Positions 2,229 through 42,930 of a DNA stretch of 64,000 nt are shown piece after piece. Made by a program: the position numbers and the translations under genes. Where the stretch lies: the NCBI GenBank assembly GCA_035623825.1, contig DASPSR010000030.1, positions 20,504 to 84,503 on the forward strand, written 5' to 3'. The stretch comes from Nitrospirota bacterium (GTDB taxonomy: Bacteria; Nitrospirota; UBA9217). Every line of letters starts with the position of its first letter. The stretch's first letter is position 1. The notes below the pieces were generated by a model. The model worked only from the letters and a program-made list of their open reading frames with translations, searched no databases and was not told where the DNA came from.

Positions 2229-2242
2229 GGGGGCCTGCAAGA

Positions 2243-4174: not shown

Positions 4175-4259
4175 TTGAGGTAAGCGGCAGCATGAGAGAA
4201 CTATCGAATAGGAGCCACATGAATAGGGGTCAAATTACATGTACTGTTAGAAAGGTGAG

Positions 4260-5087
4260 GTGCATATGGCCCGTGAAACATCGAATCAATTCGATTTTAC
4301 AATGTTTGGCTGTTATGTAGCGCTGTTCATTGTTTTGCTATCTTGCCATCCTGATGCCCTCAGGGCACAAGAACAATCAGTAACCAGACCGTCTCTTCCT
4401 CCGACCTTTCCCGCCGGAACAGATTTGCAATCAAAATGCTTGGAGTGTCACAATTACGGGGAAAATCACCACCCTGTCGGCAGTGCCCCTTCGAACCCTG
4501 TAAACTATCCATTTCCGCTTTATAACGGGAAAATCATGTGTTTGACTTGCCACACAGAGGACCATCAAACAGGAGGCCTAGGACTCTTACGAGGAGGTCC
4601 GTACAATGACAGGCGGGATATCTGTTTTAAATGTCATACTCAGAGAGAGTATGCTGGTATCGATCCTCACATCATGATGGATGACCGCGGTAAAATACGC
4701 AGCATGAACGGCCGACCGGTCTGTCTCTTTTGTCATTCCACATTACCTAACCCAACAACTGATAGAACCGGAGATGTCCGGTTCAGGGCGGATGTTGCTT
4801 TCCTCTGCTGGCGCTGTCACCCTCTTATGGCGAGCCCGATTTTTTTCAAAACGCACTTCCTCAAAAAGCCGTCAGAAGAAATGGAAAAGTACATAAAAGA
4901 AAAGGAACAACTGATACTAGTGACTATTCCCCTAGTGCCCAGAGACCGCATTACCTGTTCGACATGTCATAACCCGCATCAAAAAGGCGTCATTCTCTAT
5001 GGCCCATCCGCTAGCGGGGCTGACCAAAAGAACAGGCTCCGGCTTCCGGGTGAAAAGCTCTGCATCGCGTGTCACAATTTCAGTTAA
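4260..5087 (+). CDS. Periplasmic multiheme cytochrome c (7 CXXCH)
   Basis: CLECH, CLTCH, CFKCH, CLFCH, CWRCH, CSTCHNPH and CIACH, plus an N-terminal hydrophobic signal. Confidence 0.9.
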   Translation: MHMARETSNQFDFTMFGCYVALFIVLLSCHPDALRAQEQSVTRPSLPPTFPAGTDLQSKCLECHNYGENHHPVGSAPSNPVNYPFPLYNGKIMCLTCHTEDHQTGGLGLLRGGPYNDRRDICFKCHTQREYAGIDPHIMMDDRGKIRSMNGRPVCLFCHSTLPNPTTDRTGDVRFRADVAFLCWRCHPLMASPIFFKTHFLKKPSEEMEKYIKEKEQLILVTIPLVPRDRITCSTCHNPHQKGVILYGPSASGADQKNRLRLPGEKLCIACHNFS

Positions 5088-19616: not shown

Positions 19617-19857
19617 TTGATCCGGGGACGGGACTTGCGTTCAGTTCCAATTGGAGACGACACGCTGCCGTGGTGTATGAAGCATCTTGGCAAGTTTGAG
19701 GTGGTCGAGACAGTCTCCACGCAACAGGGATCTCGCACGATGGTCATCGAACCGAGCCGGGGCCCCACAACATATACGTGCCACCTGTATCGATGAGGAC
19801 CTGTCTGTTAAACCGCGGGAAATTATTCTCTCGGGAAAAACTAATACGGAGACTCGA
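19617..19857 (+). pseudogene. Degenerate copy 2 of the YncE-like 3' end (frameshifted, internal ~100 bp deletion)
   Basis: Encodes DPGTGLAFSSN and KFEVVETVSTQQGSRTM in different frames, then matches 18040-18104. Confidence 0.8.
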
Positions 19858-21910
19858 AACAGGCGCTGAACCCCTTCGATGCCTGCTCCCGATGTACCAC
19901 TTTCTGCAGTTGTTGCCCGCTTGATTCAAGCATGCTGGACGCGGAGAATTGCTCCCACTTACTGACATGCATGAGCCTGACAACCCTGTTAGCAATGCTT
20001 TTTCTTTCATCCGGTGTTATCACCACGCATGATATGCTTTTGCGGCAATATCCGGAATAGCTGCAACCGACATTATGGCACATGTCATCGACGGATATAC
20101 TCTTGGACAAATTCCTCGGCTGGTCGATATCACAGCCTTTGATCGCTGCGACATGATATGCAAGGAGCTGCAGCGGTACAATGGTGACAAAGGGGACGAG
20201 TGCGGGATGTGTCGACGGCACAACGATCATGTGGTCCACGTTGTCGCGAAAGGCAGCCGGAGAATCCGTAACCACGATGATTCTTCCGCCTCGCTCTTTC
20301 ACCTCCTCGATGTTCGATAGGATCTTCTCTTGCAGGCCGTCGATCGTTGCAAGGAATACAACGGGGACTCCGTCCTCGATGAGCGCGATAGGGCCATGTT
20401 TCATTTCTCCCGCCGGATATCCATCCGCGTGAATGTAGGCGAGTTCTTTCATCTTGAGCGCGCCTTCAAGCGCTATAGGGTAGTTGATTCCCCGACCTAC
20501 GTACAGCATGCTCTTCGCGCCCGCCAGGGTCTTTGCGATTTCCTTGATTACTCCCTCGGTTTGTAGCGCCTGACGAATGAGCCTGGGCAGATCGAGCATG
20601 AACGGCTTGAGCGTCTGAGTCTCGAGGTCGCTAAGTTTGCCTTTCTTAGTACCCAGGGCAATACCCAGAAGGCTCAAAGCGGCAAGCTGAGCGGTAAAGG
20701 ACTTGGTGGATACAACCCCGATCTCCAATCCCGCTCGCGTGTAGAGGACCGAATCCGCTTCGCGGGCAGTTGTGCTCCCGACGACATTGCAGATCGTTAG
20801 GGTCCTTGCTCCTTTTTTCTTCGCTTCACGTTGTGCTGCGAGGGTATCTGCTGTTTCTCCAGACTGCGTAATGGTGATGAGGACAGTTCCTTTCGGGATG
20901 ATCGGGCACATGTCCCGGAATTCCGAGGCGATGTCCACAGCCACAGGGATTCGCACAAACTTCTCGATCATGTAACGGCCGGCTAGGCCTGCATGGTAAG
21001 ACGTACCGCAGGCTACAATATGGAGCCGCCTGAGATCCTTGATGGTACCTGAAAAGCCGGTCTCCTCAATGAGCCTGTTCGTGTCATCGGTCCACTCCCG
21101 CAGAGTATCCATGACCCCCTGGGGTTGCTCGTATATCTCTTTGAGCATGAAGTGGTCGTATCCGTGCTTTTCTGCCATTGAAGGCGTCCAGTCTACCGTC
21201 GTTATCTTCCGTTCCGGTTGCAGGGTCTCCAGAGACACGACATGCTTCAAATCGACCCCGCTACGCCTGAGCGCGGCTAAGTACTGATCTTCGAGATAAA
21301 TGAAACTCTTCGTGTAGGGGAGGAGTGCGGCAACATCAGATGCAATGAAATATGCATCCGTGCTTATTCCAATGACTAGCGGGCTGCCGTTGCGGATCGC
21401 AAACAGCGTATCAGGCGTGCCATCGTATATGATCCCTAGGGCGTAGACCCCGCGAAGGCGCTCGATTGCTCGTTGGATCGCCTCATCGATCTGAAGACCT
21501 TGGTCGAGGTAGCGAGCGATGAGCTGAGGTACTACCTCTGTGTCCGTCTGGGATGTGAAAACACAACCTGCCGCCGTTAGTTCGGTCCTCAACCCGTGGT
21601 AATTTTCAATGATGCCGTTATGTACCACGGATACTCCATTCACGGTATGCGGATGAGCATTGGCTCCCGATGGCACCCCATGTGTGGCCCATCGGGTATG
21701 ACCGATACCGAGCGTGATGTCTGGTAACGGAATCGGCATTATCTTCTGGAGGTCCCTCAACTTGCCTTGATTCTTATAAATCTCGATACTCGATCCGTTT
21801 TTAAATGCAATTCCCGATGAATCGCAACCACGGTACTCCAAACGTGTAAGACCATCAAAGAGAAGCTGCAAAGAATCCTTTTTCCCAACATATCCTATAA
21901 TTCCGCACAT
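19841..21910 (-). CDS. glmS: Glutamine--fructose-6-phosphate aminotransferase; C-terminus extended by a probable 1-nt frameshift
   Basis: MCGIIG, GHTRWATHG, HNGIIEN, QSGETADT, EMKHGP, PRNLSKS. The canonical end falls at about 20085. Confidence 0.9.
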   Translation of the reverse strand: MCGIIGYVGKKDSLQLLFDGLTRLEYRGCDSSGIAFKNGSSIEIYKNQGKLRDLQKIMPIPLPDITLGIGHTRWATHGVPSGANAHPHTVNGVSVVHNGIIENYHGLRTELTAAGCVFTSQTDTEVVPQLIARYLDQGLQIDEAIQRAIERLRGVYALGIIYDGTPDTLFAIRNGSPLVIGISTDAYFIASDVAALLPYTKSFIYLEDQYLAALRRSGVDLKHVVSLETLQPERKITTVDWTPSMAEKHGYDHFMLKEIYEQPQGVMDTLREWTDDTNRLIEETGFSGTIKDLRRLHIVACGTSYHAGLAGRYMIEKFVRIPVAVDIASEFRDMCPIIPKGTVLITITQSGETADTLAAQREAKKKGARTLTICNVVGSTTAREADSVLYTRAGLEIGVVSTKSFTAQLAALSLLGIALGTKKGKLSDLETQTLKPFMLDLPRLIRQALQTEGVIKEIAKTLAGAKSMLYVGRGINYPIALEGALKMKELAYIHADGYPAGEMKHGPIALIEDGVPVVFLATIDGLQEKILSNIEEVKERGGRIIVVTDSPAAFRDNVDHMIVVPSTHPALVPFVTIVPLQLLAYHVAAIKGCDIDQPRNLSKSISVDDMCHNVGCSYSGYCRKSISCVVITPDERKSIANRVVRLMHVSKWEQFSASSMLESSGQQLQKVVHREQASKGFSACFESPY

Positions 21911-27370: not shown

Positions 27371-28879
27371 TTGATAACAACTCGGGACCGTCAGCCAAAA
27401 TTGATCATGACAGTGAATGCTTTCAAATGCGCTTACCATAAAAACCGTGCTGCGATCTGGCTCATAGCCGCCTTTACAGGCGTGCGTCTCCTTGTCGCGC
27501 CAACATTCGGGCTTGGGACCGACGAGGCCCATTATGTTCTCTATGCGAAGTACCTGGATCTTAGTTACTTCGATCATCCCCCGCTCGTCGGCTGGACCCA
27601 TGCGCTTTTCTATTACACGTTCGGTACGAATGAATTTCTGGCGCGGTTGCCCGCGATACTTCTTTTTACGGTCACATCGTTCCTCTGCTATCGGTTCACG
27701 CTTTTGGAAGGAGGGGAGAGGACAGCGCTTCTTGCAACCGCTGCCTTGAATAGTTCGTTTCTGCTGAGCGGCCTCGGCCTCATGTTGCTTCCAGAATCAC
27801 TGCTCTTAGCCCTTGTTTTTGCGCTCATCTATGCTGTCAGAAAGCTCGAACGCTCTCCGGACCTGTTGAACTTCGTCCTCCTGGGGTTGATCCTAGGCCT
27901 CGCCGGCCTAACCAAATATACAGCCATTCTGTTTGTCCCCGCCATTGCTTTCTACGCGGTGATAAAGCGACGGTATGACATACTTTTCAATCCGAGGCTG
28001 CTTATATCGGCGGCCGTTGCCTTCATCTTCATCACTCCCGTGATTTATTGGAACGTCCAGAATGGTCTTATAAGCATCCGTTACCAGATAGGCCATGTGC
28101 TTGGCAGCCATTCACCCAGCTTCGGGACTTTGTTGGCTTCGCTTGCCGCGCAATTCGGCGCTTATAGCCCGCCTCTGTTCTGTCTCGCTTTTTATGGTCT
28201 CTATGCGTCGTTGAAGAGCCTCGACGATCTCCTGCTGTTGCCCGTGCTGATCGGGGGATCGGTTTTACTCTTCTCTATCTATGAGTCCTTGTTCAAATTT
28301 ACGCTACCTCACTGGTCTGCGGTTTTCTATGCAATCTTTATCCCTCTCGGGGTTGTTATGATGGACAATGGTCCCGTACGTGCGAAGCGCTCCATTCTCC
28401 TCATTTCCCTCGGGTTCAGCATCACTGTCGCCCTGCTCCTCCAGGCGGAAGTTGCGGTAAAGGCCTTTAGGTTTCCCGACTACAAGTCCCCATTCAGAAC
28501 TGTATACGGGCTCAAGGACGTGGTCAGGCGAGCGAACGACACCATGGCGAAAGATCCGTCTTCCGACAAAGCCCTTGCGGTTCTGAACTGGACCGATGTC
28601 AGCAGGACCTTATACTACAATCTCCCGTTCGGCAGCAAAGTATTTCTTGTCGATAAGCATGACGAACGGTTTTCCCGGTGGATCACCGGATCCCCCATCG
28701 GTCTAGATATCCTGTTCATCAACAATCATTTTCACGGACGTGACATCGGCAACGATATGAGGTGCCGTGAAGCACGAACCGCTGGCCGGGTTGATATCCT
28801 TTTGAATGGCGGCAAGGTTGACACAGTTGATTTCATATGGTGCAGGTCCTTCGGCGGAGTAAAACCCGGCAGGGAATAG
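27371..28879 (+). CDS. GT39/ArnT-PMT family polyprenyl-phosphate-sugar glycosyltransferase
   Basis: DEAHY, YFDHPPL, ARLP, LTKYT, P.IYWN, PHW and many TMs. The start may be ATG 27407. Confidence 0.85.
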   Translation: MITTRDRQPKLIMTVNAFKCAYHKNRAAIWLIAAFTGVRLLVAPTFGLGTDEAHYVLYAKYLDLSYFDHPPLVGWTHALFYYTFGTNEFLARLPAILLFTVTSFLCYRFTLLEGGERTALLATAALNSSFLLSGLGLMLLPESLLLALVFALIYAVRKLERSPDLLNFVLLGLILGLAGLTKYTAILFVPAIAFYAVIKRRYDILFNPRLLISAAVAFIFITPVIYWNVQNGLISIRYQIGHVLGSHSPSFGTLLASLAAQFGAYSPPLFCLAFYGLYASLKSLDDLLLLPVLIGGSVLLFSIYESLFKFTLPHWSAVFYAIFIPLGVVMMDNGPVRAKRSILLISLGFSITVALLLQAEVAVKAFRFPDYKSPFRTVYGLKDVVRRANDTMAKDPSSDKALAVLNWTDVSRTLYYNLPFGSKVFLVDKHDERFSRWITGSPIGLDILFINNHFHGRDIGNDMRCREARTAGRVDILLNGGKVDTVDFIWCRSFGGVKPGRE

Positions 28880-29359
28880 AGACTCGGAATAGGGGGTCTG
28901 TATGAACGGCGATGCATGTTTGCCAGATAAATCGCATTATGCGCGAGATTCTGACATATTTGGGGAAGCACCCGGATGCCCAGGGAACGTTGCATGGTAT
29001 TTTGCAGGACTGACTTCTTGACAATCGTGAGGGAAAACGTTTCAAAATACTTCGTCCAGACCGTATGTGTAGGCTCTAGCCATCAAGGCAGAGATTATGC
29101 AGCTTCCCTTTTCCCCGCTCTGCTGTCTGAGCAGGACATGAAAATCATTTACGATATCGAGAAAAGCTCAGAGGTTCGTTTTAATAATTACTAGTCGGCA
29201 GGCTACATGACCATTTAGCAATCCATTTATAACGATTGACTATTGTGGACTGGAAATGGTAAAAAGAAACGACGTCTGAACCTCAAACGACTGGGATTAT
29301 TGCACGCGTTATTTCTGATTACATAATGGGAAAGGCCGTCCACACTGGCCTGCTTCTTG

Positions 29360-29715
29360 ATAATGCCCGATAATTAAATGATTTTATGGAGACAGATTTA
29401 TCTGGGTCTTCTTTTCAAGAAACTAATCAGCAACAGCCGCGAAGCGCCGGCGAGCTACGCGTGAGTGCGCACATCCCCCATAAGCGAGCGCCCATCGCGG
29501 AAAGGGTGCTTGAAGATGACGAAATTGGATTCCCGTTGTCTGCCGATCTGGAAAAACTTACAGCACCCTTTGAACAAGCTGGTCATGGGGTGGTGGACTT
29601 GGTTTGTATCTTTCGGATAAAGTTGTGATGGCGCACTGTGTATTCTATCGCCGGCAGGAATGGAAGTGGAGCTCAGGTCATCATGACATTTCTTATGAAA
29701 CGGATAAGAACCTGA
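29360..29715 (+). pseudogene. Frameshifted histidine kinase remnant directly upstream of the sigma54 activator
   Basis: Pieces in shifting frames (GDRF/LGLLFKKLISNSREA/LEDDEIGF..DLEKLTAPF/GGGLGLYL..VMAH/GAQVIMTFLMKRIRT*) are colinear with the C-terminus of the kinase at 18294-19451. Confidence 0.8.
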
Positions 29716-29719
29716 TATC

Positions 29720-31066
29720 ATGAAAAAACCGACAGTAATGATCGTTGACGATGAAAAGAATTTTGCTGAGTCGCTGCAGCTGGCGATCGAGGACGCTTTT
29801 ACCGTCGTTTTAGTCTCCAGTCTGAGAATGGCGCGGGATGTAATCAAGGATAGTATGCCTGACGCCATCTTGCTCGATGTTTATCTACCTGACGGCGAGG
29901 GGATTGAGGTGCTTCGTGAGCTGAAAAAAAATCCTCGAATGCCTATCGTTATCGTCATGACTGCTTTCGCAACCATTGAAAACGCCATCTTGGCGCTTAA
30001 AGAGGGCGCTGTCGACTATGTCACAAAACCCTTGGATATTGATAAGTTGAAGCGGGAACTGGGAGTCTATCTCGAAAACAGGTCGCTTCAGAAGAAAATC
30101 AGCAATCTTGACCGCGAGATAAAGAGGATCGTCCCGCCTTTTGTCACTTCAGGGAAAGGCTCAATGAAAGCAATTGTCGAACGAGTACCGGCCGTGGCTC
30201 ATCTCCCAATACCCGTTCTTATCCAAGGGGAAACGGGGACCGGTAAGGAGAAACTGGCACAGTGGATTCATGGTCTATCCGATTTGCAAGGTGAATTGGT
30301 GACGATCAGCTGCGCCGCCGTTCCCAAGGATATTTTTGAGAGCGAACTGTTCGGATACGTAAAAGGGGCGTTCTCTGGCGCCGTCGGCAACAAGGAGGGT
30401 TTGATAGAACGGGCGGAGGAAGGCACCTTATTCCTCGATGAGATCGGTGAACTGGCGGATGAAACGCAAGCGAAATTGCTTCGTGTCCTTGAATCCGGCC
30501 GGTACTTTAAACTCGGCGATGTGCGTGAACGAAACGCACGCTTCAGGCTCATTACCGCTACGCACAAGAATTTGAGCAATCCGGCGAACAGATTCCGTCA
30601 AGACCTTTATTACCGCATAACGGGAATTGTGTTGGAACTGCCCCGTTTGCGCGATCGCAAAGAGGACATTCCTCTTCTGACGAGAGCGTTCTTGAACGAA
30701 GCCGGGTATGCATATAATAAAAGCGTCAGAGATATTTCCGATGGGGCATCGGAGATGCTCCTGAACTATGACTGGCCCGGAAATATCCGGGAACTCAAAT
30801 GGTGCATTCACCGTGCCGTAGCAACAACGACAAAAGACATCTTGAACGAGGATGATCTTGTACTTGGTCCTGGATCAATGAAGAATTCATGCGTGAATGA
30901 TAACCAGGTTCTCACTGTTGCTCTTAAGGACGCGGTAGAGGAAGTGGAAAAGAAATGCATTAAAAACGCTATGACCGCTGCGAGGAACAATAAAACTGAA
31001 GCAGCCAAGATCCTGGGCATATCGGTAAGACAGCTTCATTACAAACTCAATCAGTACTCCCTATAA
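29720..31066 (+). CDS. sigma54-dependent NtrC-family response regulator (receiver-AAA+-Fis HTH)
   Basis: GETGTGKE, ESELFG..KGAFSGA, FLDEIG, FRQDLYYR, WPGNIREL, NKTEAAKILGIS. Confidence 0.92.
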   Translation: MKKPTVMIVDDEKNFAESLQLAIEDAFTVVLVSSLRMARDVIKDSMPDAILLDVYLPDGEGIEVLRELKKNPRMPIVIVMTAFATIENAILALKEGAVDYVTKPLDIDKLKRELGVYLENRSLQKKISNLDREIKRIVPPFVTSGKGSMKAIVERVPAVAHLPIPVLIQGETGTGKEKLAQWIHGLSDLQGELVTISCAAVPKDIFESELFGYVKGAFSGAVGNKEGLIERAEEGTLFLDEIGELADETQAKLLRVLESGRYFKLGDVRERNARFRLITATHKNLSNPANRFRQDLYYRITGIVLELPRLRDRKEDIPLLTRAFLNEAGYAYNKSVRDISDGASEMLLNYDWPGNIRELKWCIHRAVATTTKDILNEDDLVLGPGSMKNSCVNDNQVLTVALKDAVEEVEKKCIKNAMTAARNNKTEAAKILGISVRQLHYKLNQYSL

Positions 31067-31260
31067 TTCACCTGGAACAAACTCGCGGCTACTGCATATT
31101 ATCTGATGAAATCCACACACATGATTTGGTCAAATAAGCACTGAAAGTTATTTGTAATGCGATCCACACGATTCGCCCCGTCCCTGCAATCCTTGTATAC
31201 AATTTGTGCGCTTTCCCCATGATGTCTAAAATTGGCCCTTGAAAAAACAGCATTTTAGAA

Positions 31261-31276
31261 TGGCACTCTATTTGCG
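31261..31276 (+). promoter_or_regulatory. sigma54 (-24/-12) promoter
   Basis: TGGCACTCTATTTGCG matches the TGGCAC-N5-TTGC consensus. Confidence 0.85.
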
Positions 31277-31352
31277 TATCTTAGTTAATCACGAGTGAAA
31301 GATTCATACAAATTCGATTTTGTAAATATCTCTAACTAATTTAAGTATAAGC

Positions 31353-31745
31353 GTGAAAATGGACTTCCCTGGTAAACCAACTTTAATGATCGTAGATGAC
31401 GAGCAGAATTTTACTGAATCACTTCAGCTTGCCATTGAAGATGAATTTACGATATCCGTAGTAGGGAGTCTTGAAAGCGCTCGGCAAATCCTGAAGAGAT
31501 TCCAGCCCGCCGCAGTCCTTCTGGATTTGCGGTTGCCGGATGGCGACGGACTCGATTTGCTTCACGATCTCAATATGCTAACCAAGCTGCCCGTTGTTGT
31601 CGTCATGACAGCCCACATGAGCGTGGAAAGTATCGAAAGGGCGATGAGCGAAGGTGTTGTTGATTACTGCACGAAGCCTCTTAATATTGAAAAATTGAAG
31701 TTAGAACTCAAAAAAAATATACAAAGAAAAGCAGAGCAAAAATAG
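31353..31745 (+). CDS. Single-domain response regulator, paralogous to the activator's receiver
   Basis: KPTLMIVDDEQNFTESLQLAIED...LLDLRLPDG...MTA...TKPL; intact D/D/T/K residues. Confidence 0.85.
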   Translation: MKMDFPGKPTLMIVDDEQNFTESLQLAIEDEFTISVVGSLESARQILKRFQPAAVLLDLRLPDGDGLDLLHDLNMLTKLPVVVVMTAHMSVESIERAMSEGVVDYCTKPLNIEKLKLELKKNIQRKAEQK

Positions 31746-31911
31746 ATTGCTTGGTGAGAATCAGAAAAAGTTCACTTTTCGTAAATACAATTGTGTGATG
31801 AAAAAAATGATATATTCCCGCATCTTTCCTGTTGAATTTTTGAAAGATGAAATGTATACTGCAAAATTGCACTCTGCAGTGAACCGCGGGCAAGAAAGGA
31901 AACGATAATTA

Positions 31912-32592
31912 ATGAAAGCACCGTATTTTGTTGCCATCGATTTTGATGGCACGGTAACCGATGTAGACATCATCGATGCTATCCTGCAAGAATTTGCAAG
32001 GCCGGAATGGAAAGAAGTGGAAATATTATGGGAGCAGGGTCTCATCGGGTCCCGAGAATGTCTTGAGCGACAGATGGCCATGGTAGACAGGACTCTCGGT
32101 CAGCTCCTTGACTATACCGACCGATTTTCTATCGACGAGACATTCGAAAATTTTGTTGGCATTCTTGAAGACCGGCAGATACCTTTTGCAATAGTCAGCG
32201 ATGGTTTTCGTGTGTTCATAGAAAGGGTACTCGAAAATGCCGGACTAATGGGGGTGCCAATCATTGCAAACGGGCTTTGGGAAGATCAGGGCAGGCTAAT
32301 TACTGCTTTCCCCTACGCTGATCGGGATTGCAATGCCGCCAACTGCAAGTGCACGGCCGTGCAAGACTTGAGCAAGGACCGCTCACTTATCCTGATAGGC
32401 GACGGACAAAGTGATTTTTGCCTCGCACATAAAGCAGGCCTTGTCTTTACAAAGAAGAAACTCACTGCTTACTGTCAGAGATGCAAAATACCGCATTACC
32501 CCTTTGATAATTTTGCTGATGTGGCGAAATTCTTTGATGTAAAGCACGCTGAAGCGGCGTCCTTATATTCTGTTGTTTCAGGAAAGGATTAA
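31912..32592 (+). CDS. HAD-IB phosphatase, MtnX-like
   Basis: DFDGT, VSDG, C....CKC and IGDGQSD motifs. Confidence 0.85.
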   Translation: MKAPYFVAIDFDGTVTDVDIIDAILQEFARPEWKEVEILWEQGLIGSRECLERQMAMVDRTLGQLLDYTDRFSIDETFENFVGILEDRQIPFAIVSDGFRVFIERVLENAGLMGVPIIANGLWEDQGRLITAFPYADRDCNAANCKCTAVQDLSKDRSLILIGDGQSDFCLAHKAGLVFTKKKLTAYCQRCKIPHYPFDNFADVAKFFDVKHAEAASLYSVVSGKD

Positions 32593-32594
32593 TA

Positions 32595-33986
32595 ATGGAA
32601 AAACTTCACGCCGAGCAGCTCACCGAGCAGGGATTGCTCGATCTTGAATCGCGCTACTGTTCATACGGCGACACGGTGCATTATTCAGAGCGCCCTGTCA
32701 TCTTCGATGAATGCGAGGGTTCCTGGCTCTACGACATGCAGGGGACTCCTTATCTGGATGTACAGATGTGGTACTCCGCTGTAAATTTCGGGTACCGGAA
32801 CAGAGATATCGAAGAGGCACACAATCATCAGATGAAGAGGCTGCCTCAGGTTGCATCCCAGTATCTCCACAAGGAGAAGATACTTCTCGCTACAGCCATT
32901 GCGAGGGAGACAGAAAAGAGGTTTGGCTTAAAAGGCAGAGTGCATTTTAATGTTGGCGGAGCGCAAGCTATCGAGGATAGTATCAAGCTCGTGCGCAATT
33001 TTAAAAAAGGCAAATCTCTTATGTTTGCGTTCATGGGCGGATATCATGGCCGGACCTTGGCCGCGACAGAGCTTACGAGCAGCTTCCGGTACCGGAAAAA
33101 ATATGGTCATTTCGGCAGCAGAGCAACCTTCATCCCTTTCCCCTATTGTTATCGGTGCTTTTACGGCAAAGAACGTAAAACCTGCGAATACGAATGTGTT
33201 CGCCAGTTCGAAAAACTTTTTGAGTCAGAATACTATGGGGTGATTGATACCAAGGAAAACGAAGTCGAATACGCAGCCTTTTTTATTGAACCGGTCCAGG
33301 CAACGGGCGGATACATCATTCCGCCGCCCGAATACTTTGCCCGGCTTGCAGAGGTGCTCTCGAAGCACGGCATCCTGCTGGTTGATGACGAGATACAGAT
33401 GGGGTTTTACCGGACGGGGAAGTTGTGGGCATTGGAGCATTTCGGGGTAAAACCGGATGTCGTTGCCTTCGCCAAATCGCTCACGAACGGTCTTAACCCA
33501 TTGTCCGGCATCTGGGCGCGTGAAGAACTCATTAACCCGAAGATGTTCCCGCCCGGATCGACTCATTCGACATTCTCAAGCAATCCTCTGGGTACTGCCG
33601 CCGGGCTTGCTACCATGGAGCTTTTGAACAAGTATGATTTTGCAAAAATGGCCGACGAAAAAGGGAAGTACCTGGTCTCGCTGCTGAAAGACCTTCAGAA
33701 AGAACATCCTGTGATCGGAAATGTTGATGGTTTGGGACTAGCCGTGAGGATCGAAATGACCAAGTCCGATGGTATTACGCCGGACAAAAAACTGACAGAT
33801 GCCATTTTTCAGGAAGGCATGAAGGGGGATATCGCCATCAACGGCAAAAAATATGGCCTTGTACTGGATGTCGGAGGTTATTACAAGAACGTATTTACCT
33901 TGGCGCCGGCTTTGACCATAACTTACGAAGAGATGGACTTGTTTATCCGTCTTTTCGAATCTCTACTTAATAGATGCGGAGAATAG
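32595..33986 (+). CDS. Class III PLP-dependent aminotransferase
   Basis: GYHGRT, FIEPVQATGG, DEIQMGFYRTG, PD...FAKSL (PLP Lys), HSTF. Confidence 0.9.
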   Translation: MEKLHAEQLTEQGLLDLESRYCSYGDTVHYSERPVIFDECEGSWLYDMQGTPYLDVQMWYSAVNFGYRNRDIEEAHNHQMKRLPQVASQYLHKEKILLATAIARETEKRFGLKGRVHFNVGGAQAIEDSIKLVRNFKKGKSLMFAFMGGYHGRTLAATELTSSFRYRKKYGHFGSRATFIPFPYCYRCFYGKERKTCEYECVRQFEKLFESEYYGVIDTKENEVEYAAFFIEPVQATGGYIIPPPEYFARLAEVLSKHGILLVDDEIQMGFYRTGKLWALEHFGVKPDVVAFAKSLTNGLNPLSGIWAREELINPKMFPPGSTHSTFSSNPLGTAAGLATMELLNKYDFAKMADEKGKYLVSLLKDLQKEHPVIGNVDGLGLAVRIEMTKSDGITPDKKLTDAIFQEGMKGDIAINGKKYGLVLDVGGYYKNVFTLAPALTITYEEMDLFIRLFESLLNRCGE

Positions 33987-34015
33987 ACCTGGTTGTAAAA
34001 GGAGGATGAAGCACT

Positions 34016-34276
34016 GTGACCACGACCTTGGAACGTATTAAAAAACTGTTTCTTGAGAACTTCGACTTTCCTGAAGAGCGGCTGCGTCCGGAAGCGACCA
34101 TTGAGAGCATCGGCCTCGATTCTCTTGATAAGATTGAGTTTTTATTCGCCCTGGAAAAAGAGTTCGACATAAAAATCCCCGATCGTGAGGTGAAGCTCGA
34201 CTCCATCCAGGACATTATCGATGTGGTTGAGCGATTGGTCATGGAGCAACATGCGGAGCAAAGGCAGAGTGTTTAG
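34016..34276 (+). CDS. Acyl carrier protein
   Basis: GLDSLD phosphopantetheine site, EKEFDIKIPD. GGAGG RBS. Confidence 0.9.
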   Translation: MTTTLERIKKLFLENFDFPEERLRPEATIESIGLDSLDKIEFLFALEKEFDIKIPDREVKLDSIQDIIDVVERLVMEQHAEQRQSV

Positions 34277-35506
34277 ATGACACGAGTGGTCATAACAGGG
34301 ATGGGCATCATATCCCCTGTGGGGAACAGCTGCGAGGAATTTTTTGACAATCTTGCTGCGGGTAGATCGGGCATCAAAAAAATGTCCTGGGATTTCGCCG
34401 ATCGATTGTCAGTGAAAATATCTGCAGAAGTGGATTTCGATGTCGAAGCCTATTTCTCAAAGAAAACCGCGCGCACCCTTGATAGGGTCAGTCAGTTCGC
34501 GATGGTCGCTGCCTCACAGGCCTGGCAGGATGCTGCTATACAGCTCCCCGAAAAGGAACAAAAACGTGCAGGTGTGTATCTGGGAACAGGCATGGGAGGA
34601 GCGCGAACGCTTGAAGAGTCCTATGTTCAGCTCCTCAAACAGAATGTGAAGCGACTTCATCCTCTCACTGTGGTCATGGTCATGAATAATGCGGCAGCGT
34701 CCTATATCTCCATGACGCATCGGCTGAAAGGTCCTTGTCTCACCTATTCGACAGCCTGCTCATCCTCGGCAGTAGCTATCGGTGAAGCTTTTCGCCAGAT
34801 CAAGCACGGGTACGCTGATGTCATGCTTGCTGGAGGGACCGAATCACTTCTCACGTTCGGTATTTTTATGAGCTGGGAATCAATCGGAACTCTGGCACTG
34901 GAAGCGGAAGATCCATCGACGTCGTGCAGGCCTTTTTCAAAGGATCGGAGCGGCTTCGTACTCGGCGAAGGGTCGGCAATTCTGGTCCTTGAATCGTTGG
35001 ATCGGGCAAAGAAACGGGGCGCTCGGATTTATGGGGAAGTAATCGGCTACGGATCAACGGCGGACGCAGATCACATTACTAAACCTTCAGTGGAAGGACA
35101 GGCTGATGCCATGAGGGCGGCCCTAGAAGAAGCCAGAATAAGCCCTGACGATATTGATTATATAAACGCGCATGGTACTGCCACAGTGGCGAATGATGCT
35201 GTCGAGACAAAGGCAATAAAGGAAGTATTCGGCCAGCGTGCCTGCCATATTCCGGTAAGTTCAACAAAATCAATGCATGGACATCTCCTGGGCGCGGCTG
35301 GCGCCGTGGAACTTGTAGCGGCAGTTCTCGCCCTGAACAAACGAATCGTTCCACCAACGGCAAACTTGATGGTGCCAGATCCCGAATGTGACCTTGATTA
35401 TGTGCCGGGAAAAGCAAGGACTGGCCTCGATCTAAAGGTCGTAATGTCCAATTCGTTCGCATTTGGCGGAACCAATGCTGTGCTTATTGTGAGAAAACAT
35501 GAGTGA
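34277..35506 (+). CDS. fabF: Beta-ketoacyl-ACP synthase (FabF-like)
   Basis: TACSS, NAHGTAT, KSMHGHLLG (Cys-His-His triad intact), SFAFGG. Confidence 0.88.
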   Translation: MTRVVITGMGIISPVGNSCEEFFDNLAAGRSGIKKMSWDFADRLSVKISAEVDFDVEAYFSKKTARTLDRVSQFAMVAASQAWQDAAIQLPEKEQKRAGVYLGTGMGGARTLEESYVQLLKQNVKRLHPLTVVMVMNNAAASYISMTHRLKGPCLTYSTACSSSAVAIGEAFRQIKHGYADVMLAGGTESLLTFGIFMSWESIGTLALEAEDPSTSCRPFSKDRSGFVLGEGSAILVLESLDRAKKRGARIYGEVIGYGSTADADHITKPSVEGQADAMRAALEEARISPDDIDYINAHGTATVANDAVETKAIKEVFGQRACHIPVSSTKSMHGHLLGAAGAVELVAAVLALNKRIVPPTANLMVPDPECDLDYVPGKARTGLDLKVVMSNSFAFGGTNAVLIVRKHE

Positions 35507-36305
35507 ACATAAAATTGACATGAGGGGGGGAGAACATGCAGTTCTTCTGATCCATGGTCTGACCGGCAGCCCCTTTGAAATGAAATATCTGGCTAGGGAA
35601 TTAAACCGCGCAGGTTTCACGGTAAAGGGCCCGTGCTTGGCTGGTCACGGTAAGACACTCGGGGACCTGAAGAGAACGCGATGGCAGGATTGGTATAGGA
35701 CAGTATGCGAGTCGTTCCAAGAACTGAAAAGAAGTCATGCAAAGGTCTCTATCGCCGGTCTTTGCATGGGAGCGTTGCTGGCCCTTAAGTTATCCGTTGA
35801 TTTTGAAGAAGAAGTAAGTTCTGTTTCTCTTATTTCAACGACATTGTTTTATGACGGCTGGGGGCTTCCTTGGTACAAATTCCTGTTGCCTCTGGCTTAC
35901 TTTGCTCCTTTCTGCCACATGTATTCCTTCAAAGAGCGCGACCCGTACGGTATCAAGAATGAGGCACTCCGGACGAGGATTGTCGAAGGCATGCGGGACG
36001 GGTCCATTGCTCACGAAAGCGTTCCTGGCGTAAGCATGCGAGAGCTCTACCGGTTTATCGATGTAACGAAGAAAAAAATCATTGCCCGGGTAACCGCACC
36101 CACGCTGATCATCCATTCGAAGGATGACGATCTTGCGAGCGCAAAGAACGCCCTTTATGTTCTTAAGCACATCAAAAGCAAGGATGTCCGCATGCTATTG
36201 CTCGATGACTGTTATCATATGGTTCCGATCGATAACCAGCGTAGCGTGGCGGCAAATGAGATCATTCATTTCTTCAAAGGTCAGTCCTGCTTGGCAAGAA
36301 CTTGA
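35499..36305 (+). CDS. Alpha/beta hydrolase (esterase fold) with Cys at the nucleophile elbow
   Basis: LIHGLTG, GHG, GLCMG, DDLA, YHM. Overlaps the ketosynthase stop. Confidence 0.85.
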   Translation: MSEHKIDMRGGEHAVLLIHGLTGSPFEMKYLARELNRAGFTVKGPCLAGHGKTLGDLKRTRWQDWYRTVCESFQELKRSHAKVSIAGLCMGALLALKLSVDFEEEVSSVSLISTTLFYDGWGLPWYKFLLPLAYFAPFCHMYSFKERDPYGIKNEALRTRIVEGMRDGSIAHESVPGVSMRELYRFIDVTKKKIIARVTAPTLIIHSKDDDLASAKNALYVLKHIKSKDVRMLLLDDCYHMVPIDNQRSVAANEIIHFFKGQSCLART

Positions 36306-36537: not shown

Positions 36538-36565
36538 TTGACAAAACACGTGCATTCCTTATAAT
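36538..36565 (+). promoter_or_regulatory. sigma70 promoter of the MFS gene
   Basis: TTGACA-N16-TATAAT. Confidence 0.65.
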
Positions 36566-36602
36566 CCCTTGATTGCTGCTTGGACAACAATCGGAAATCC
36601 TC

Positions 36603-38138
36603 ATGTCAAAACCTGACCAACATGAAGTTGTTCTGGCATCGCCCGGAGAGATACGGACCGTAGTCATCGGCCTGATGCTGGCCTTGACGCTCGCAGCTCT
36701 CGACCAAAACATCGTGGGCGTAGCCCTGCCCCGGATCGTGAGCGACCTGGGCGGCCTCGCACATTTGTCGTGGGTCGTCACATCGTTCATGGTGACCTCA
36801 ACTGCCACGACGCCTCTATATGGCAAGCTTTCTGACCTCTATGGACGAAAGCCACTTTTCATCACATCGATCCTTATCTTTCTCATAGGCTCCAGCCTCT
36901 GTGGCCTATCGCGCTCGATGGCCGAACTCGTGGTCTTTCGTGGAATCCAAGGGATCGGCGCGGGTGGTCTCATAACCCTGGCTATGACGACCATCGCCGA
37001 CCTCGTGGCCCCGCGCGAGCGGGGAAGGTATCAGGGCCTGTTCGGCGCAGCCTTCGCCTTTTCGAGCATCGCGGGTCCGCTCCTAGGGGGCTTCATCACG
37101 AGTGCTCTGTCGTGGCGATGGATCTTCTATGTCAACCTGCCGATCGGTCTCGTGGCACTGTTTTTTTTCATCTTTGGTTTTCACCGTCCTCATCGCCGCG
37201 TATCGCATCGTATTGATTATCTGGGCGTGGTGCTCCTAACATCCGGGACCGTGGCGCTGCTTCTGGTCCTGAGCATGGGCGGTGTGCAGTACTCCTGGTC
37301 GTCGCCGCTCATCATCGGGTTAGCGGCATTGGCAGGACTGCTCTGCTGCCTTCTGGTTGCTACGGAGCGACGCTCCGCGGAACCAGTATTCCCCTCCCAT
37401 CTATTTCAGAGCCGGGTCTTCATCATTGCTTCGGGAACCATGGCGACCACATTTATGGGCCTTTTCGGCGCCGCTGTGTTCCTCCCCCTCTTTTTTCAAC
37501 TTGTTTTGGGTTATGCGCCGGCTGAGGCGGGGCTCTTGATGGCCCCGATGACCGCCGGCGTGGTCGTGTCCTCATTTCTCGGTGGCCGACTCGTCTCTTT
37601 GACCGGAAAATATAAGATCTTTCCCGTCGTCGGTCTTGCAGCGGCAAGCCTCGCATTCCTGACGGTAATGGCTGCGTCAGCCCTGCACGCAGGAATCGTC
37701 GTCATCGAAACGTCACTCATCGTTCTGGGCATCGGGTTCGGCCTGGTCATGCCTAATCTTATGGTAGCGATTCAAAACTCGGTCAGAAGCCGGGAATTGG
37801 GCGCAGCGACAGCTGCCTCGACGTTCTTCCGTTCCCTCGGCGGCACCTTCGGTGTCGCTCTGTCCGGCGCTATCATAACGGCCCAACTCAAGGGACTGCA
37901 CCTTGCCAGTACGCCGAGTGCCAGCGCCCGATCACTTCTCGAGCAGGGGCTCAGGGAGATCTCGCAGCTTCCCGAAGTCCAGCGAAACGTCGTCATTGAA
38001 ACCTACCGCCACGCAATCACCATAACGTTCCTCGTAGGTGCTATCATCACCGGCCTCGCCTTTACGCTCGTGCTTTTTCTTCCAGAGCATCCACTCCGAT
38101 CCGGCCGGCACAGCGAGAAAACAAGGGAAGATGGTTAA
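36603..38138 (+). CDS. DHA2 (EmrB/QacA) MFS drug efflux transporter
   Basis: LAALDQNIV.VALP, YGKLSDLYGRK, RGIQGIGAGG, WRWIFYVNLP. Confidence 0.9.
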   Translation: MSKPDQHEVVLASPGEIRTVVIGLMLALTLAALDQNIVGVALPRIVSDLGGLAHLSWVVTSFMVTSTATTPLYGKLSDLYGRKPLFITSILIFLIGSSLCGLSRSMAELVVFRGIQGIGAGGLITLAMTTIADLVAPRERGRYQGLFGAAFAFSSIAGPLLGGFITSALSWRWIFYVNLPIGLVALFFFIFGFHRPHRRVSHRIDYLGVVLLTSGTVALLLVLSMGGVQYSWSSPLIIGLAALAGLLCCLLVATERRSAEPVFPSHLFQSRVFIIASGTMATTFMGLFGAAVFLPLFFQLVLGYAPAEAGLLMAPMTAGVVVSSFLGGRLVSLTGKYKIFPVVGLAAASLAFLTVMAASALHAGIVVIETSLIVLGIGFGLVMPNLMVAIQNSVRSRELGAATAASTFFRSLGGTFGVALSGAIITAQLKGLHLASTPSASARSLLEQGLREISQLPEVQRNVVIETYRHAITITFLVGAIITGLAFTLVLFLPEHPLRSGRHSEKTREDG

Positions 38139-41434: not shown

Positions 41435-41705
41435 TGAGTTCCAAGATATTAAACCTTGTGTTTTAAGAAAGGTTTGCAGTTTGCTAATGGTTGAAGGACC
41501 TGAGATTCTCGTTCGTGCTCAGAGTCAAGCCGCAATGAAGTTTTTCGAAAGGGGGGATCACACTAAGATCTGGAACTCATTAGCAACAAGACGCAACAAT
41601 ACCGTTTCTTCCATTGCCCGGCTGCAGTTGACGATACACAGTAGGCGATCCAATAGGAGATAGAGGTATATCACGGTAATGTTCTTGCTAAGGAGACAAT
41701 CGGAT

Positions 41706-42098
41706 ATGAAAACTATACTGTTGGTTGATAATAATCTCGCTTTTTTGTATGACATGGGAGAGGTTTTGAGCATGTTTGGATACAAGGTTATTCAAAAACC
41801 TGATGCAGAATCCGCGCTATCCATCATTCAGAAAGGGGTAAGGGTTGATCTTGTAGTGACGGATTATCATATGCAAGGGATGAATGGCCATGAATTTCTT
41901 TATGCTCTCAAAAAGATTTTGCCATCTGTGCCGACAATTATGCTTACCGCACACGGATCCGTGGAGACCTATTTAAAATCTCTCAGCCTTGGCGTGTTCG
42001 AGCATCTCCATAAGCCGGTCGAAACAAAGGAATTGGGCCGTATCGTTGAGGCAGCACTCGAATGGTCAGATGCCGGTCATTCCTTGTCTGTTTCATGA
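41706..42098 (+). CDS. Single-domain response regulator
   Basis: ILLVDNN, DLVVTDYHM, MLTAHG, HKP. AAGGAG RBS. Confidence 0.85.
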   Translation: MKTILLVDNNLAFLYDMGEVLSMFGYKVIQKPDAESALSIIQKGVRVDLVVTDYHMQGMNGHEFLYALKKILPSVPTIMLTAHGSVETYLKSLSLGVFEHLHKPVETKELGRIVEAALEWSDAGHSLSVS

Positions 42099-42555
42099 TG
42101 TGGGGGATCAGCACTTTCGCCATGTGCTGACGAGACGGGCACCTCTTGCCTGTCCATGAACTTTTAAAGAAAGCTGTCGGTGTAAAATTTTTCTTCACTT
42201 TTCACGCTATTTCCCTTCTCCAAATACTACCCCGGAAGGCCCGCCAATGATACCTGTTTTAGTTCACGCCTGAGAAAAATGCCGGGTTATGGAATTTTAA
42301 GTTTCCAAGTCTCGATAATTCTGCTATCGAGTCAAATTATAAAGACTGGAAGAGAAATACTGTAGGAAAGTATTATTTATGATATAGTATCTAACTAAGG
42401 GGCTTTATCCACTTTCACTTGACACATTATATCTAAATGAATAAATTACATCAAGAAAATACAGCCCAATCTCAACCGAGCGGAATGCAGTCGTTCATTC
42501 GGCGTGATTGCCGTGCCGGGGTCGCCAGGAAGGAGATAGTGGACAGGTTATACTT

Positions 42556-42930
42556 ATGAAGACAATACTTCTGGTAGATGATGATCGAGACGTATTGAGT
42601 TACTTGGAGGACACCTTGGCCACGCTTGGCTACAATGTTATCCCAAAACCAGATGCAGCGTCTGCCCTGTCCGCCATCCGGGACGGGGCGAAAATTGATC
42701 TTGTGGTGACGGATTACCGTATGCCGGGGATGGACGGCCATGAATTTTTCACTGCGCTCAAACAGGCGCTGCCGTCCGTTCCAGTAATTATACTCACTGG
42801 ACATGGCTCTGTGGAGACCTATTTGAAGTCTCTGAGCCTCGGGCTGTCAGATTATGTCAGTAAGCCTGTTGAGCCAAAGGAACTCGATCGTATTGTGAAA
42901 GCGGCGTTACGCAGGTCAGAGACGGAATGA
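42556..42930 (+). CDS. Single-domain response regulator (paralog of 41706)
   Basis: ILLVDDD, DLVVTDYRMPGMDG, LTGHG, SKP. TTGACA-N17-TAAATT at 42419-42447. Confidence 0.88.
   Translation: MKTILLVDDDRDVLSYLEDTLATLGYNVIPKPDAASALSAIRDGAKIDLVVTDYRMPGMDGHEFFTALKQALPSVPVIILTGHGSVETYLKSLSLGLSDYVSKPVEPKELDRIVKAALRRSETE

Follow-up and report, generated by a model that had tools for sequence, protein, structure and literature searches.

A sigma-54-type operon from a Nitrospirota bacterium as an apparent variant of an uncharacterised HAD phosphatase-aminotransferase pathway, possibly directed to an envelope lipid

Introduction

In SerC/SerB, a transaminase works on a phosphorylated keto compound and a HAD-IB phosphatase acts next; a similar pair is encoded in the operon described here, which lies in a stretch of 64,000 nucleotides from a Nitrospirota bacterium (hereafter the window; contig DASPSR010000030.1, positions 20,504 to 84,503). 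However, SerC belongs to a different aminotransferase class from class III, and the HAD phosphatase of the window scores 31 against 144 for the SerB equivalog. The XrtA/PEP-CTERM cassette, as defined in NCBIfam/TIGRFAM, comprises two alpha/beta hydrolases, an acyl carrier protein (ACP), an acyl-CoA ligase and a PLP decarboxylase, often with sigma-54-type PEP-CTERM regulators. It is comparable as an uncharacterised set uniting alpha/beta hydrolases with carrier, adenylating and PLP-dependent proteins, but the hydrolase of the window scores 32.7 against 202.75 for TIGR03101, its PLP enzyme has an aminotransferase fold, and a look for an exosortase gene in the window gave none.

Two further systems were compared with the window and with related loci. 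These loci are the 80 that score highest among the 590 or more genome loci encoding the class-III aminotransferase (AT), a sample that may not represent the whole set and in which many loci come from close relatives (17 from Pseudomonas), so that counts are not independent; partners were counted when a homologue lay within 8 kb of the AT gene. Iturin/mycosubtilin-type lipopeptide synthetases possess an AL-ACP-KS-AMT loading module whose AMT domain aminates 3-oxoacyl-ACP. This module and the operon both combine an ACP, a decarboxylating ketosynthase (KS) and a class-III aminotransferase, with no reductive domains in either, but in the window the proteins are discrete, there is no NRPS and an invariant HAD is present, and in most loci (57/80) the HAD-AT pair is found without KS or ACP. 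The Arn system (L-Ara4N on lipid A) is echoed by an ArnT-like GT-C neighbour in the window and by ArnE/F-like permeases and DegT-type aminotransferases in related loci. Nonetheless, the window lacks ArnA, ArnB, ArnC and ArnD, its AT is of class III and not DegT, and its GT39 protein, which falls far below the ArnT equivalog (34 versus 567), has no counterpart in any of the 80 loci.

The closest likeness in reaction logic is found in Campylobacter jejuni capsule synthesis. According to PMC11800397, transaminase Cj1437 makes an amino-alcohol phosphate, (S)-serinol phosphate, from a phosphorylated ketone, the ATP-dependent amide ligase Cj1438 forms the amide, and HAD phosphatase Cj1435 dephosphorylates after ligation. 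The AT of the window, together with its hydrolase (or, in other loci, a PaaK-like ligase) and the HAD, might follow the same logic, although in C. jejuni the acyl partner is the carboxylate of a polysaccharide glucuronate, versus an ACP thioester here, and neither KS nor ACP takes part. No name for the pathway of the window was found in curated families, solved structures or the searchable literature. In line with its proposed lack of a match to arn-type and other known pathways, the searches gave no curated equivalog or characterised pathway that matches it.

Results and Discussion

The operon is intact. An activator gene, a -24/-12 promoter, a receiver gene and five enzyme genes were all found (Table 1), in agreement with the initial annotation, whose starting point, 27371, is however that of the GT39/PMT_2 gene and not of the activator gene. 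After the receiver, the reading of open reading frames gave HAD-IB phosphatase, AT, ACP, FabF-type KS and alpha/beta hydrolase genes, with the same coordinates and gaps (2, 29, 0 and -8 nt) as described before; HAD and AT are probably translationally coupled. The catalytic motifs also proved intact: DFDGT in the HAD, the AT lysine (within FAKSLTNG), DSL in the ACP, TACSSS, HGTAT and HGHLLG forming the Cys-His-His set of the KS, and GLCMG (Cys nucleophile), DDD and CYH in the hydrolase. Pfam and NCBIfam profiles detected no ketoreductase (KR), dehydratase (DH) or chain-length factor among the open reading frames between 18.3 and 41 kb of the window, upholding the absence previously noted.

Table 1. 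Positions of the operon, its control elements and its neighbours in the window
Feature	Position	Strand	Evidence
glmS	19841-21910	-	7.8 kb before activator
Sigma-54-like site CGGCATTTTTCTTGCT 5′ of glmS	22001-21986	-	~75 nt before ATG; two mismatches; GG and GC in register
GT39/PMT_2 glycosyltransferase, neighbour	27371..28879	+	PMT_2 86 bits; ArnT equivalog 34 vs 567
Sigma-54 enhancer-binding response regulator (activator)	29720..31066	+	REC, AAA+ (Sigma54_activat 182.7 bits), HTH_8 (Pfam)
Two copies of ATGNNATCCACAC, direct repeat D1	31106..31169	+	13 nt, 85% identity
Sigma-54 (-24/-12) promoter TGGCACTCTATTTGCG	31261..31276	+	1 mismatch to TGGCAC-N5-TTGCW
Stand-alone receiver, first gene of operon	31353..31745	+	Response_reg 73.3 bits
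MtnX-like HAD-IB phosphatase	31912..32592	+	TIGR01489 87.7 bits (cutoff 81.55); DFDGT nucleophile motif
Class-III (PLP) aminotransferase-fold enzyme, AT	32595..33986	+	Aminotran_3 256.8 bits; 2 nt after HAD
Dedicated acyl carrier protein	34016..34276	+	PP-binding 43 bits; DSL; 29 nt after AT
FabF-type elongating ketosynthase	34277..35506	+	TIGR03150 (fabF equivalog) 514.5 bits (cutoff 493.75); gap 0 after ACP
Alpha/beta hydrolase, monoacylglycerol-lipase-like	35499..36305	+	Hydrolase_4 61.8 bits; overlaps KS by 8 nt
Sigma-70 consensus promoter of MFS gene	36538-36565	+	TTGACA-16-TATAAT
DHA2-family MFS efflux pump, neighbour	36573..38138	+	TIGR00711 276 bits vs 230

The activator, in which the Walker A motif GETGTGKE and the GAFSGA motif can be read, reaches no NCBIfam equivalog cutoff (best AtoC, 344 bits against 714); homologues of at least 150 bits occur within 8 kb of the AT gene in 22/80 loci. 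Promoter TGGCACTCTATTTGCG sits 77 nt 5′ of the receiver gene. Over the whole window, the number of sigma-54 motifs is not above chance (2 matches versus 1.95 expected), and the weight given to TGGCACTCTATTTGCG comes from its position and from its recurrence in relatives. Indeed, sigma-54-like sites precede the HAD gene in 24/74 loci, versus about 2.6 expected by our own arithmetic (0.079 sites per kb per strand, over 450 nt in each of 74 loci), as well as the REC-first operon of four acidobacterial loci; such promoters and activators recur across phyla. The two ATGNNATCCACAC copies, 51 nt apart and 90-155 nt 5′ of the -24 element, are candidate binding sites for the activator. The stand-alone receiver is a paralogue of the activator's own receiver: it aligns over 123 aa with activator residues 3-125, at 53% identity. 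Acidobacteria also have REC-first operons.

Across phyla, HAD and AT form the constant core. A HAD homologue is present in 79/80 loci, lying within 250 nt of the AT gene in 72 of them, while HAD, AT, ACP, KS and hydrolase are found all together in six loci, so the five-gene cassette does not hold as a conserved unit. The window would then represent one gene arrangement of a widespread and uncharacterised pathway that has this pair at its centre. Hundreds of bacterial species carry the pair, with lipid-handling partners that vary, and its product is undescribed. The HAD has MtnX (2fea, 67 bits) as its closest structure, resembles the phosphoserine-phosphatase fold and passes Put_Phosphatase PF06888 (37.9 bits, cutoff 27), a family of phosphoethanolamine-type phosphatases. 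The AT belongs to an uncharacterised, highly conserved class-III subfamily: the best 120 matches, from many phyla, are 64-94% identical to it, and no NCBIfam equivalog cutoff is reached (best 291.7 against 552). Strong conservation of the AT beside such varied partners fits a fixed small substrate, and not a variable acyl chain.

Racemases and lyases share this aminotransferase fold, and the top PDB matches of the AT (best 185 bits) are archaeal Ala/Ser racemases, together with broad-specificity racemases. One can thus imagine that a phosphoserine-type phosphatase and a racemase or transaminase together supply a (D-)amino acid, which the ACP carries and which ends up on an envelope polymer or lipid. 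The resemblance of the HAD to phosphoserine phosphatase, the FemAB-like GNATs of 24/80 loci and a Bartonella plasmid locus, where cycA, GNAT and MBOAT genes lie beside an AT with no annotated HAD nearby, would suit such a decoration. However, the Arg of the NV-x-R-x-x-P motif in 9wqz (the best PDB match) and two related structures, which we take to bind the alpha-carboxylate, is Thr in 81/81 family members; moreover, the window has no adenylating enzyme able to load the ACP, and the KS is left without a role. We regard an amino-acid decoration as very unlikely.

The ACP falls under the AcpP equivalog cutoffs (50.4 versus 70.45) and is found near AT in 20/80 loci. A cluster-linked KS occurs in 23/80, and those of loci L002, L003 and L004 score 507-518 bits to the KS of the window. 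Since this KS passes the housekeeping fabF cutoff, a spare ACP-FabF pair might have come by chance to lie next to HAD, AT and hydrolase genes that have nothing to do with it, but the tight or overlapping spacing, the score of the ACP, and the six loci with all five families, among them L002 with an identical gene order, make such a coincidence extremely improbable. A beta-amino fatty acid is another conceivable outcome: KS and ACP would make 3-oxoacyl-ACP, the AT would aminate it, the hydrolase would release or transfer the 3-aminoacyl group and the HAD would prepare the acceptor. This is consistent with adjacent ACP, elongating KS and class-III AT genes with no KR or DH, with an acidobacterial operon that unites PaaK-like ligase, ACP, KS and AT, and with a FAAL-ACP-hydrolase fusion adjoining AT in L025. 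Nonetheless, we find it unlikely, and the amination of a beta-ketoacyl-ACP put forward earlier is weakened, because HAD-AT loci mostly lack KS (57/80) or ACP (60/80), the invariant HAD is left without a role, the nearest characterised relatives of the AT are GABA/acetylornithine-type enzymes and racemases, and very high AT conservation speaks against an acyl-chain substrate.

The hydrolase, closest in structure to Bacillus monoacylglycerol lipases (about 102 bits), is proposed to be an acyl-enzyme transferase or thioesterase. Its homologues, present in 46/80 loci, have ties to acyl carriers: they adjoin ACP-KS in L002, L020, L038 and L045, and the one in L025 is the hydrolase part of the FAAL-ACP-hydrolase fusion. 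The nucleophile is Cys in nine of 47 aligned sequences (8/46 homologues and that of the window), Ser in 36 and unreadable in two; Cys is therefore not a defining feature, as had been thought, and is lineage-specific. None of the 80 loci has both the hydrolase and a PaaK-like adenylating ligase (the latter present in 26), and the partner type tracks the AT tree (6 and 5 changes versus 26 and 22 when shuffled), which fits two alternative routes to one amide bond.

Altogether, we tentatively favour, with a confidence somewhat short of even, a route centred on the HAD-AT pair and leading to an N-acyl amino-alcohol that serves as an envelope lipid or its precursor. The NtrC-type activator would turn on expression, and the receiver copy may weaken the signal by drawing off phosphate. 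The AT would take a small phosphorylated carbonyl compound (triose-phosphate-like) from central metabolism and turn it into an amino-alcohol phosphate, while the dedicated ACP and KS would provide a special acyl thioester, possibly 3-oxoacyl. The lipase-like hydrolase would take the acyl group onto its Cys and pass it to the amine to form an amide, and the HAD would strip the phosphate before or after acylation. Most likely, the product would be an amide-linked envelope lipid. Counting against this explanation are the KS of the window, which has no partner KR, DH or ER, the racemase matches of the AT, and the Bartonella locus, whose AT has no annotated HAD nearby.

The HAD-AT pair is accompanied by genes for acyl handling, lipid modification, glycolipids and lipid export. 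FemAB-like GNATs, arginase-fold enzymes, ArnE/F-like permeases (weak NCBIfam matches, 39.6 versus 92), UgtP-like glycosyltransferases, desaturase, CFA-synthase, MlaA/C and DevC/HlyD exporters are found in relatives. A Xanthomonas sacchari locus groups KS, ACP, GNAT, arginase-family, DegT, two EamA, hydrolase and HlyD/ABC genes, a Rhizobium operon contains desaturase and CFA-synthase-family genes, L027 has UgtP-like glycosyltransferases, a deacetylase and an ABC-2 exporter, and L036 has MlaC/MlaA. These neighbourhoods suggest an acylated amine or envelope lipid, consistent with the inducible amino-lipid or envelope direction of the initial annotation. As FemAB-like, arginase-fold, ArnE/F-like, PaaK-like and UgtP-like partners are all missing from the window, its product may not be the one that the larger clusters make.

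Operons for nitrogen-source catabolism are typically under sigma-54/NtrC-type control, and the HAD and hydrolase match PHOSPHO1-like and monoacylglycerol lipase families. Hydrolase, phosphatase and transaminase might then degrade a phospho-amine head group such as phosphoethanolamine. Such nitrogen scavenging is highly improbable given the biosynthetic partners (ACP and elongating KS, glycosyltransferases, desaturase, CFA-synthase, exporters) and the lack of a conserved uptake system.

The DHA2 efflux pump directly 3′ of the operon raises another fate for the same chemistry, an exported signal or surfactant such as an N-(3-oxoacyl) amine. A KS without reductive enzymes would yield a 3-oxoacyl group, and ArnE/F-like permeases (31/80 loci) and ABC/HlyD exporters (several loci) are in line with export. 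We consider this quite unlikely, as the MFS gene is preceded by a sigma-70 consensus promoter of its own, none of the 80 loci has a homologue of 60 bits or more within 8 kb of AT, and the desaturase, CFA-synthase, MlaA/C and UgtP-like partners suit membrane lipids better. GT39, glmS and the MFS pump are not conserved partners. From the initial interpretation, the operon, the absence of a known match and the context of an acylated amine or envelope lipid are retained, and the five-gene unit, the Cys hallmark and the GT39/glmS partnership are not. Indeed, GT39 homologues were found within 8 kb of AT in 0/80 loci and a GlmS homologue in 1/80, while the positions of both genes and the sigma-54-like site CGGCATTTTTCTTGCT 5′ of glmS are as originally described.

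Enzymes of the operon

The ORF listing and the family scans bore out the operon described in the initial annotation, in which a stand-alone receiver gene is followed by the genes for a HAD phosphatase, an aminotransferase (AT), an ACP, a ketosynthase (KS) and a hydrolase, the last five spaced by 2, 29, 0 and -8 nt. As read from the sequence, all five proteins retain intact catalytic motifs: DFDGT in the HAD, the PLP lysine in the AT, DSL in the ACP, Cys-His-His in the KS, and GLCMG with an Asp and a His in the hydrolase. No ketoreductase, dehydratase or chain-length factor family was found near the operon in the family scans.

Positions of the operon, of its surroundings and of related clusters (window positions unless a locus is named)
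Feature	Position	Remark
GT39/PMT_2 gene	27371-28879	ORF listing and family scan
GT39-activator interval	28880-29719	
Sigma-54 enhancer-binding response regulator (activator)	29720-31066	REC, AAA+ and HTH_8 domains
Receiver domain of activator	29720-30094	
Sigma-54 promoter TGGCACTCTATTTGCG	31261-31276	-24/-12, one mismatch to consensus
Stand-alone receiver	31353-31745	first gene of operon
MtnX-like HAD-IB phosphatase	31912-32592	
Class-III aminotransferase	32595-33986	
ACP	34016-34276	
FabF-type KS	34277-35506	
Alpha/beta hydrolase	35499-36305	
Sigma-70 consensus TTGACA-16 nt-TATAAT	36538-36565	
MFS pump gene	36573-38138	
Single-domain receiver-like ORFs	41679-42098; 42508-42930	
glmS	19841-21910 (-)	
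Sigma-54-like CGGCATTTTTCTTGCT	22001-21986 (-)	about 75 nt upstream of GlmS ATG
Further envelope-lipid genes	1227-5087	about 25 kb from operon
Arginase-fold/GNAT/permease clusters	L065 5353-7236; L001 11323-14696; L082	L082: Xanthomonas sacchari plasmid

Among the operon proteins, the KS alone reaches an NCBIfam equivalog cutoff (fabF, TIGR03150; 514.5 bits, cutoff 493.75), and its TACSSS, HGTAT and HGHLLG motifs supply the Cys-His-His catalytic triad. The ACP passes the Pfam PP-binding threshold (43 bits, threshold 20.8) and has the DSL motif; it stays below the cutoff of the housekeeping AcpP (TIGR00517; 50.4 bits, cutoff 70.45). The HAD falls into the MtnX-like HAD-IB subfamily (TIGR01489; 87.7 bits, cutoff 81.55), and its DFDGT fits the DxDGT nucleophile motif. 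The solved structures nearest to it are MtnX and phosphoserine phosphatase. MtnX proper, of methionine salvage, was rejected as an assignment (TIGR03333, 81.8 vs 303.2; NF007103, 98.1 vs 292). A search for HAD fusions returned one PIG-L deacetylase-HAD protein (39% identity) and two double-HAD proteins.

The AT is a clear class-III enzyme (PF00202, 256.8 bits, gathering score 30.5) and its PLP lysine, K294, is kept in 81/81 sequences. It reaches no NCBIfam equivalog cutoff for a named enzyme of this class (AcOAT family, GABA-AT, BioA, DABA-AT, PbfA, racemases), the top scores being 291.7 vs 552 for NF004426, 222.9 vs 506.65 for GABA-AT and 204.9 vs 405 for BioA. Its best solved relatives, at only about 185 bits, are archaeal Ala/Ser racemases and GABA-type enzymes. 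The NV-x-R-x-x-P motif carries an Arg in 9wqz, the top PDB match, and in two more related structures; we take this Arg to be the alpha-carboxylate binder, and in its place all 81 members of the AT family have a Thr. If that role of the Arg holds, this substitution makes an amino-acid racemase function less likely. No long fusion protein containing the AT was found at E <= 1e-60, which is weak evidence by the tool's own account, and an ESM Atlas search returned generic aminotransferase clusters only.

Residues 185-201 of the AT carry a C-x2-C-x8-C-x3-C motif that is invariant among anaerobe-type homologues; in 28 of the 81 family members, His, Gly and Tyr stand at three of these positions. The motif is possibly a metal or Fe-S site, specific to the lineage, within a PLP enzyme.

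The hydrolase has Bacillus monoacylglycerol lipases as its nearest solved structures, and scores 32.7 bits against the exosortase-A associated hydrolase 2 model (TIGR03101), below the 202.75 cutoff. Its nucleophile is a Cys in 9 and a Ser in 36 of 47 aligned sequences; the Cys can thus be read as a lineage variant that fits a plain acyl-enzyme mechanism.

The HAD-AT pair and its partners

The best 120 database matches of the AT show 64-94% identity, and their sources include Nitrospirota, Desulfobacterota, Planctomycetota, Negativicutes and Myxococcota. The closest of the homologues (78-94%) lie on metagenome contigs. AT loci number at least 590 in species-representative genomes, and the 80 compared here (L001, L002 and so on) are the top-scoring subset, with many close relatives among them. 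Partners were counted by phmmer within 8 kb of the AT, with the window proteins and representatives of the partner families as queries.

Partner families within 8 kb of the AT in the 80 best-scoring loci
Family	Loci
HAD	79/80, 72 of them within 250 nt of AT
Hydrolase	46/80
ArnE/F-like small EamA permeases	31/80
PaaK-like ligase	26/80
FemAB-like GNAT	24/80
Arginase-fold protein	23/80
KS	23/80
Sigma-54 activator	22/80
ACP	20/80
UgtP/MGDG-synthase-like GT	20/80
MipA	19/80
GlmS	1/80
GT39	0/80
MFS pump	0/80

These counts indicate that the conserved unit is the HAD-AT pair and not, as first proposed, the five-gene set, which is one of several architectures. Indeed, all five families occur together in 6/80 loci: L002, which has the same gene order as the window, three from Omnitrophota (L020, L038, L045) and two from Gammaproteobacteria (L019, L057). 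GT39 and glmS, put forward as recurrent partners, do not recur near the AT. Conversely, the arginase-fold, ArnE/F-like, FemAB-like, PaaK-like, UgtP-like, MipA, desaturase and DegT families are absent from the six frames of the window (E <= 1e-3).

In a quick maximum-likelihood search (IQ-TREE), the window AT groups with those of L002, L003, L004 and L001 (support 100). As these loci belong to one Deltaproteobacteria MAG, two MAGs of Thiotrichales and one of Bacillota, the module crosses phyla. The hydrolase and the PaaK-like ligase are mutually exclusive (both in 0/80 loci), and which of them is present follows the AT tree; we read them as two alternative routes to the same bond.

A fatty-acyl-AMP-ligase (FAAL)-ACP-hydrolase protein of Legionella steigerwaltii, encoded beside the HAD and AT, has the hydrolase as its C-terminal domain, a fusion that ties the hydrolase to carrier-bound acyl groups. 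A Rhizobium megaplasmid operon has the order HAD, AT, hypothetical (arginase-fold), permease, fatty-acid desaturase, alpha/beta hydrolase, GNAT, EamA and CFA-synthase family. The Xanthomonas sacchari locus contains HAD, AT, KS, ACP, GNAT, arginase family, DegT, two EamA genes, hydrolase and HlyD/ABC genes. Acidobacterial operons run receiver, ACP, KS, UgtP-like GT, PaaK-like ligase, HAD and AT. A Pyrinomonadaceae locus has a second GT as well, together with a polysaccharide deacetylase and an ABC-2 exporter, and a Hyphomicrobiaceae locus has MlaC and MlaA upstream. Altogether, the product that these partners suggest is an amine-bearing envelope lipid, acylated and possibly glycosylated, and not a soluble central metabolite.

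The arginase-fold partner retains the metal-ligand motifs known from arginases (GDFHH, DNHPD and DKD). In larger clusters it is accompanied by the FemAB-like GNAT and by two ArnE/F-like small permeases, an association which suggests that these clusters hydrolyse a guanidino group, a step for which the window has no equivalent.

Proposed sigma-54 control

The operon has the sequence features of sigma-54 dependence: GG at -24 and GC at -12 with the right spacing, and an adjacent activator (Sigma54_activat, 182.7 bits) with a Walker A motif and GAFSGA as its GAFTGA-type loop. Over the whole window, matches to the promoter motif are not above chance (2 observed vs 1.95 expected), so the weight of TGGCACTCTATTTGCG comes from its position and its recurrence in relatives. 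With GG and GC fixed and at most two mismatches (background 0.079 per kb per strand), a sigma-54-like site lies between positions -300 and +150 relative to the start of the HAD ORF in 24/74 loci vs about 2.6 expected by our own arithmetic, a count that overstates independence, many loci being related, though several phyla are represented. These loci include 17 from Pseudomonas, and others from Nevskia, Camelimonas and Telmatospirillum. Four acidobacterial loci have such a site just upstream of a receiver-first operon. L002 has no receiver gene and no close promoter match upstream of its HAD gene. If the operon makes an envelope lipid, regulation by sigma-54 activators suggests that the envelope is altered inducibly.

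A repeat search found ATGNNATCCACAC twice upstream of the promoter; both copies are candidate activator sites. No histidine kinase is encoded adjoining the activator. The stand-alone receiver and the receiver domain of the adjacent activator share 53% identity over 123 aa, a likeness suggestive of feedback; the stand-alone protein may serve as a phosphate sink or in feedback. This pattern did not extend to the two acidobacterial loci compared, L008 and L040, where BLASTP aligned the stand-alone receiver to no part of the neighbouring activator, which in L040 is cut by the locus end.

Proposed route

The window GT39 scores 34.2 against the ArnT equivalog cutoff of 567, and no DegT, formyltransferase, GT2 or deformylase family of the Arn pathway was found among the ORFs scanned. 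In all ORFs from 24.6 to 41 kb, Pfam detected no alpha-oxoamine synthase (Aminotran_1_2) and no OlsB/OlsA-type acyltransferase, as markers of Spt-type sphingolipid or ornithine-lipid (OlsB/OlsA/OlsF) synthesis. Of the components of the iturin-type AL-ACP-KS-AMT module, in which the AMT acts on an ACP-bound 3-oxoacyl chain, the operon has an ACP, a KS and a class-III enzyme that might correspond to the AMT, and no acyl-AMP ligase.

We favour an inferred route in which the AT would aminate a small phosphorylated carbonyl compound, the dedicated ACP would donate an acyl group with which the hydrolase, as an acyl-enzyme, would N-acylate the AT product, and the HAD would then remove the phosphate. 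This order is favoured by the universal, tightly coupled HAD-AT pair and its independence from KS and ACP, by the very high conservation of the AT and by the likeness of the HAD to amino-alcohol phosphate phosphatases. The initial annotation had instead proposed that a beta-ketoacyl-ACP is made and is then aminated and/or transferred to a dephosphorylated (amino)sugar or polyol. Amination of a 3-oxoacyl-ACP by the AT is possible for the KS-bearing variants, but it cannot apply to the majority of loci and leaves the HAD without a role. The step order of the favoured N-acylation route has a documented precedent in the capsule synthesis of C. jejuni, where it applies to serinol phosphate (PMC11800397). 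Among the open-access full texts searched, this was the only precedent to surface, and no paper on the cassette was found.

More broadly, the HAD-AT pair could mark a class of amide-linked membrane lipids or glycolipids that spans phyla and has so far gone unrecognised, with a small amino-alcohol as backbone, sphingolipid-like without a serine palmitoyltransferase, drawing acyl chains from interchangeable ACP-KS, FAAL-ACP or PaaK-like modules and serving sigma-54/two-component-inducible envelope remodelling; we regard this as a long shot. As part of that whole and equally doubtful reading, the class would span Pseudomonas, Rhizobium, Caulobacter, Acidobacteria, Omnitrophota and anaerobes like the source of the window. 

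If the favoured reading is right, hundreds of species make a lipid or acylated amine still without a name, a pathway or a function. Carriers include the tractable and well-studied Pseudomonas, Rhizobium, Agrobacterium, Caulobacter and Xanthomonas. The comparison singles out two core enzymes that are invariant, modules for acyl supply that can be swapped and a promoter type that is conserved, which make the question directly testable.

Neighbouring genes

The 840 nt between the GT39 and activator genes contain no long ORF and none that matches a family, the scan having included two short ones, and Rfam gave no match in this interval or over 17000-44000 as a whole. The MFS gene has its own perfect sigma-70 consensus, which ends 8 nt upstream of the listed TTG start; translation probably begins further downstream. 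Downstream of a second MFS gene lie two more single-domain receiver-like ORFs that are very similar. The GlmS ORF, preceded by its sigma-54-like site, encodes 689 aa, of which GlmS models cover residues 1-608 only, so that about 80 residues extend past the usual C-terminal end (...KSISVD). Finally, the further envelope-lipid genes group a radical-SAM protein with DUF3463 (which we take to be an HpnH-type domain pair), a carotenoid-synthesis-family protein, a protein with a PagL-like lipid A deacylase domain and a multihaem cytochrome.
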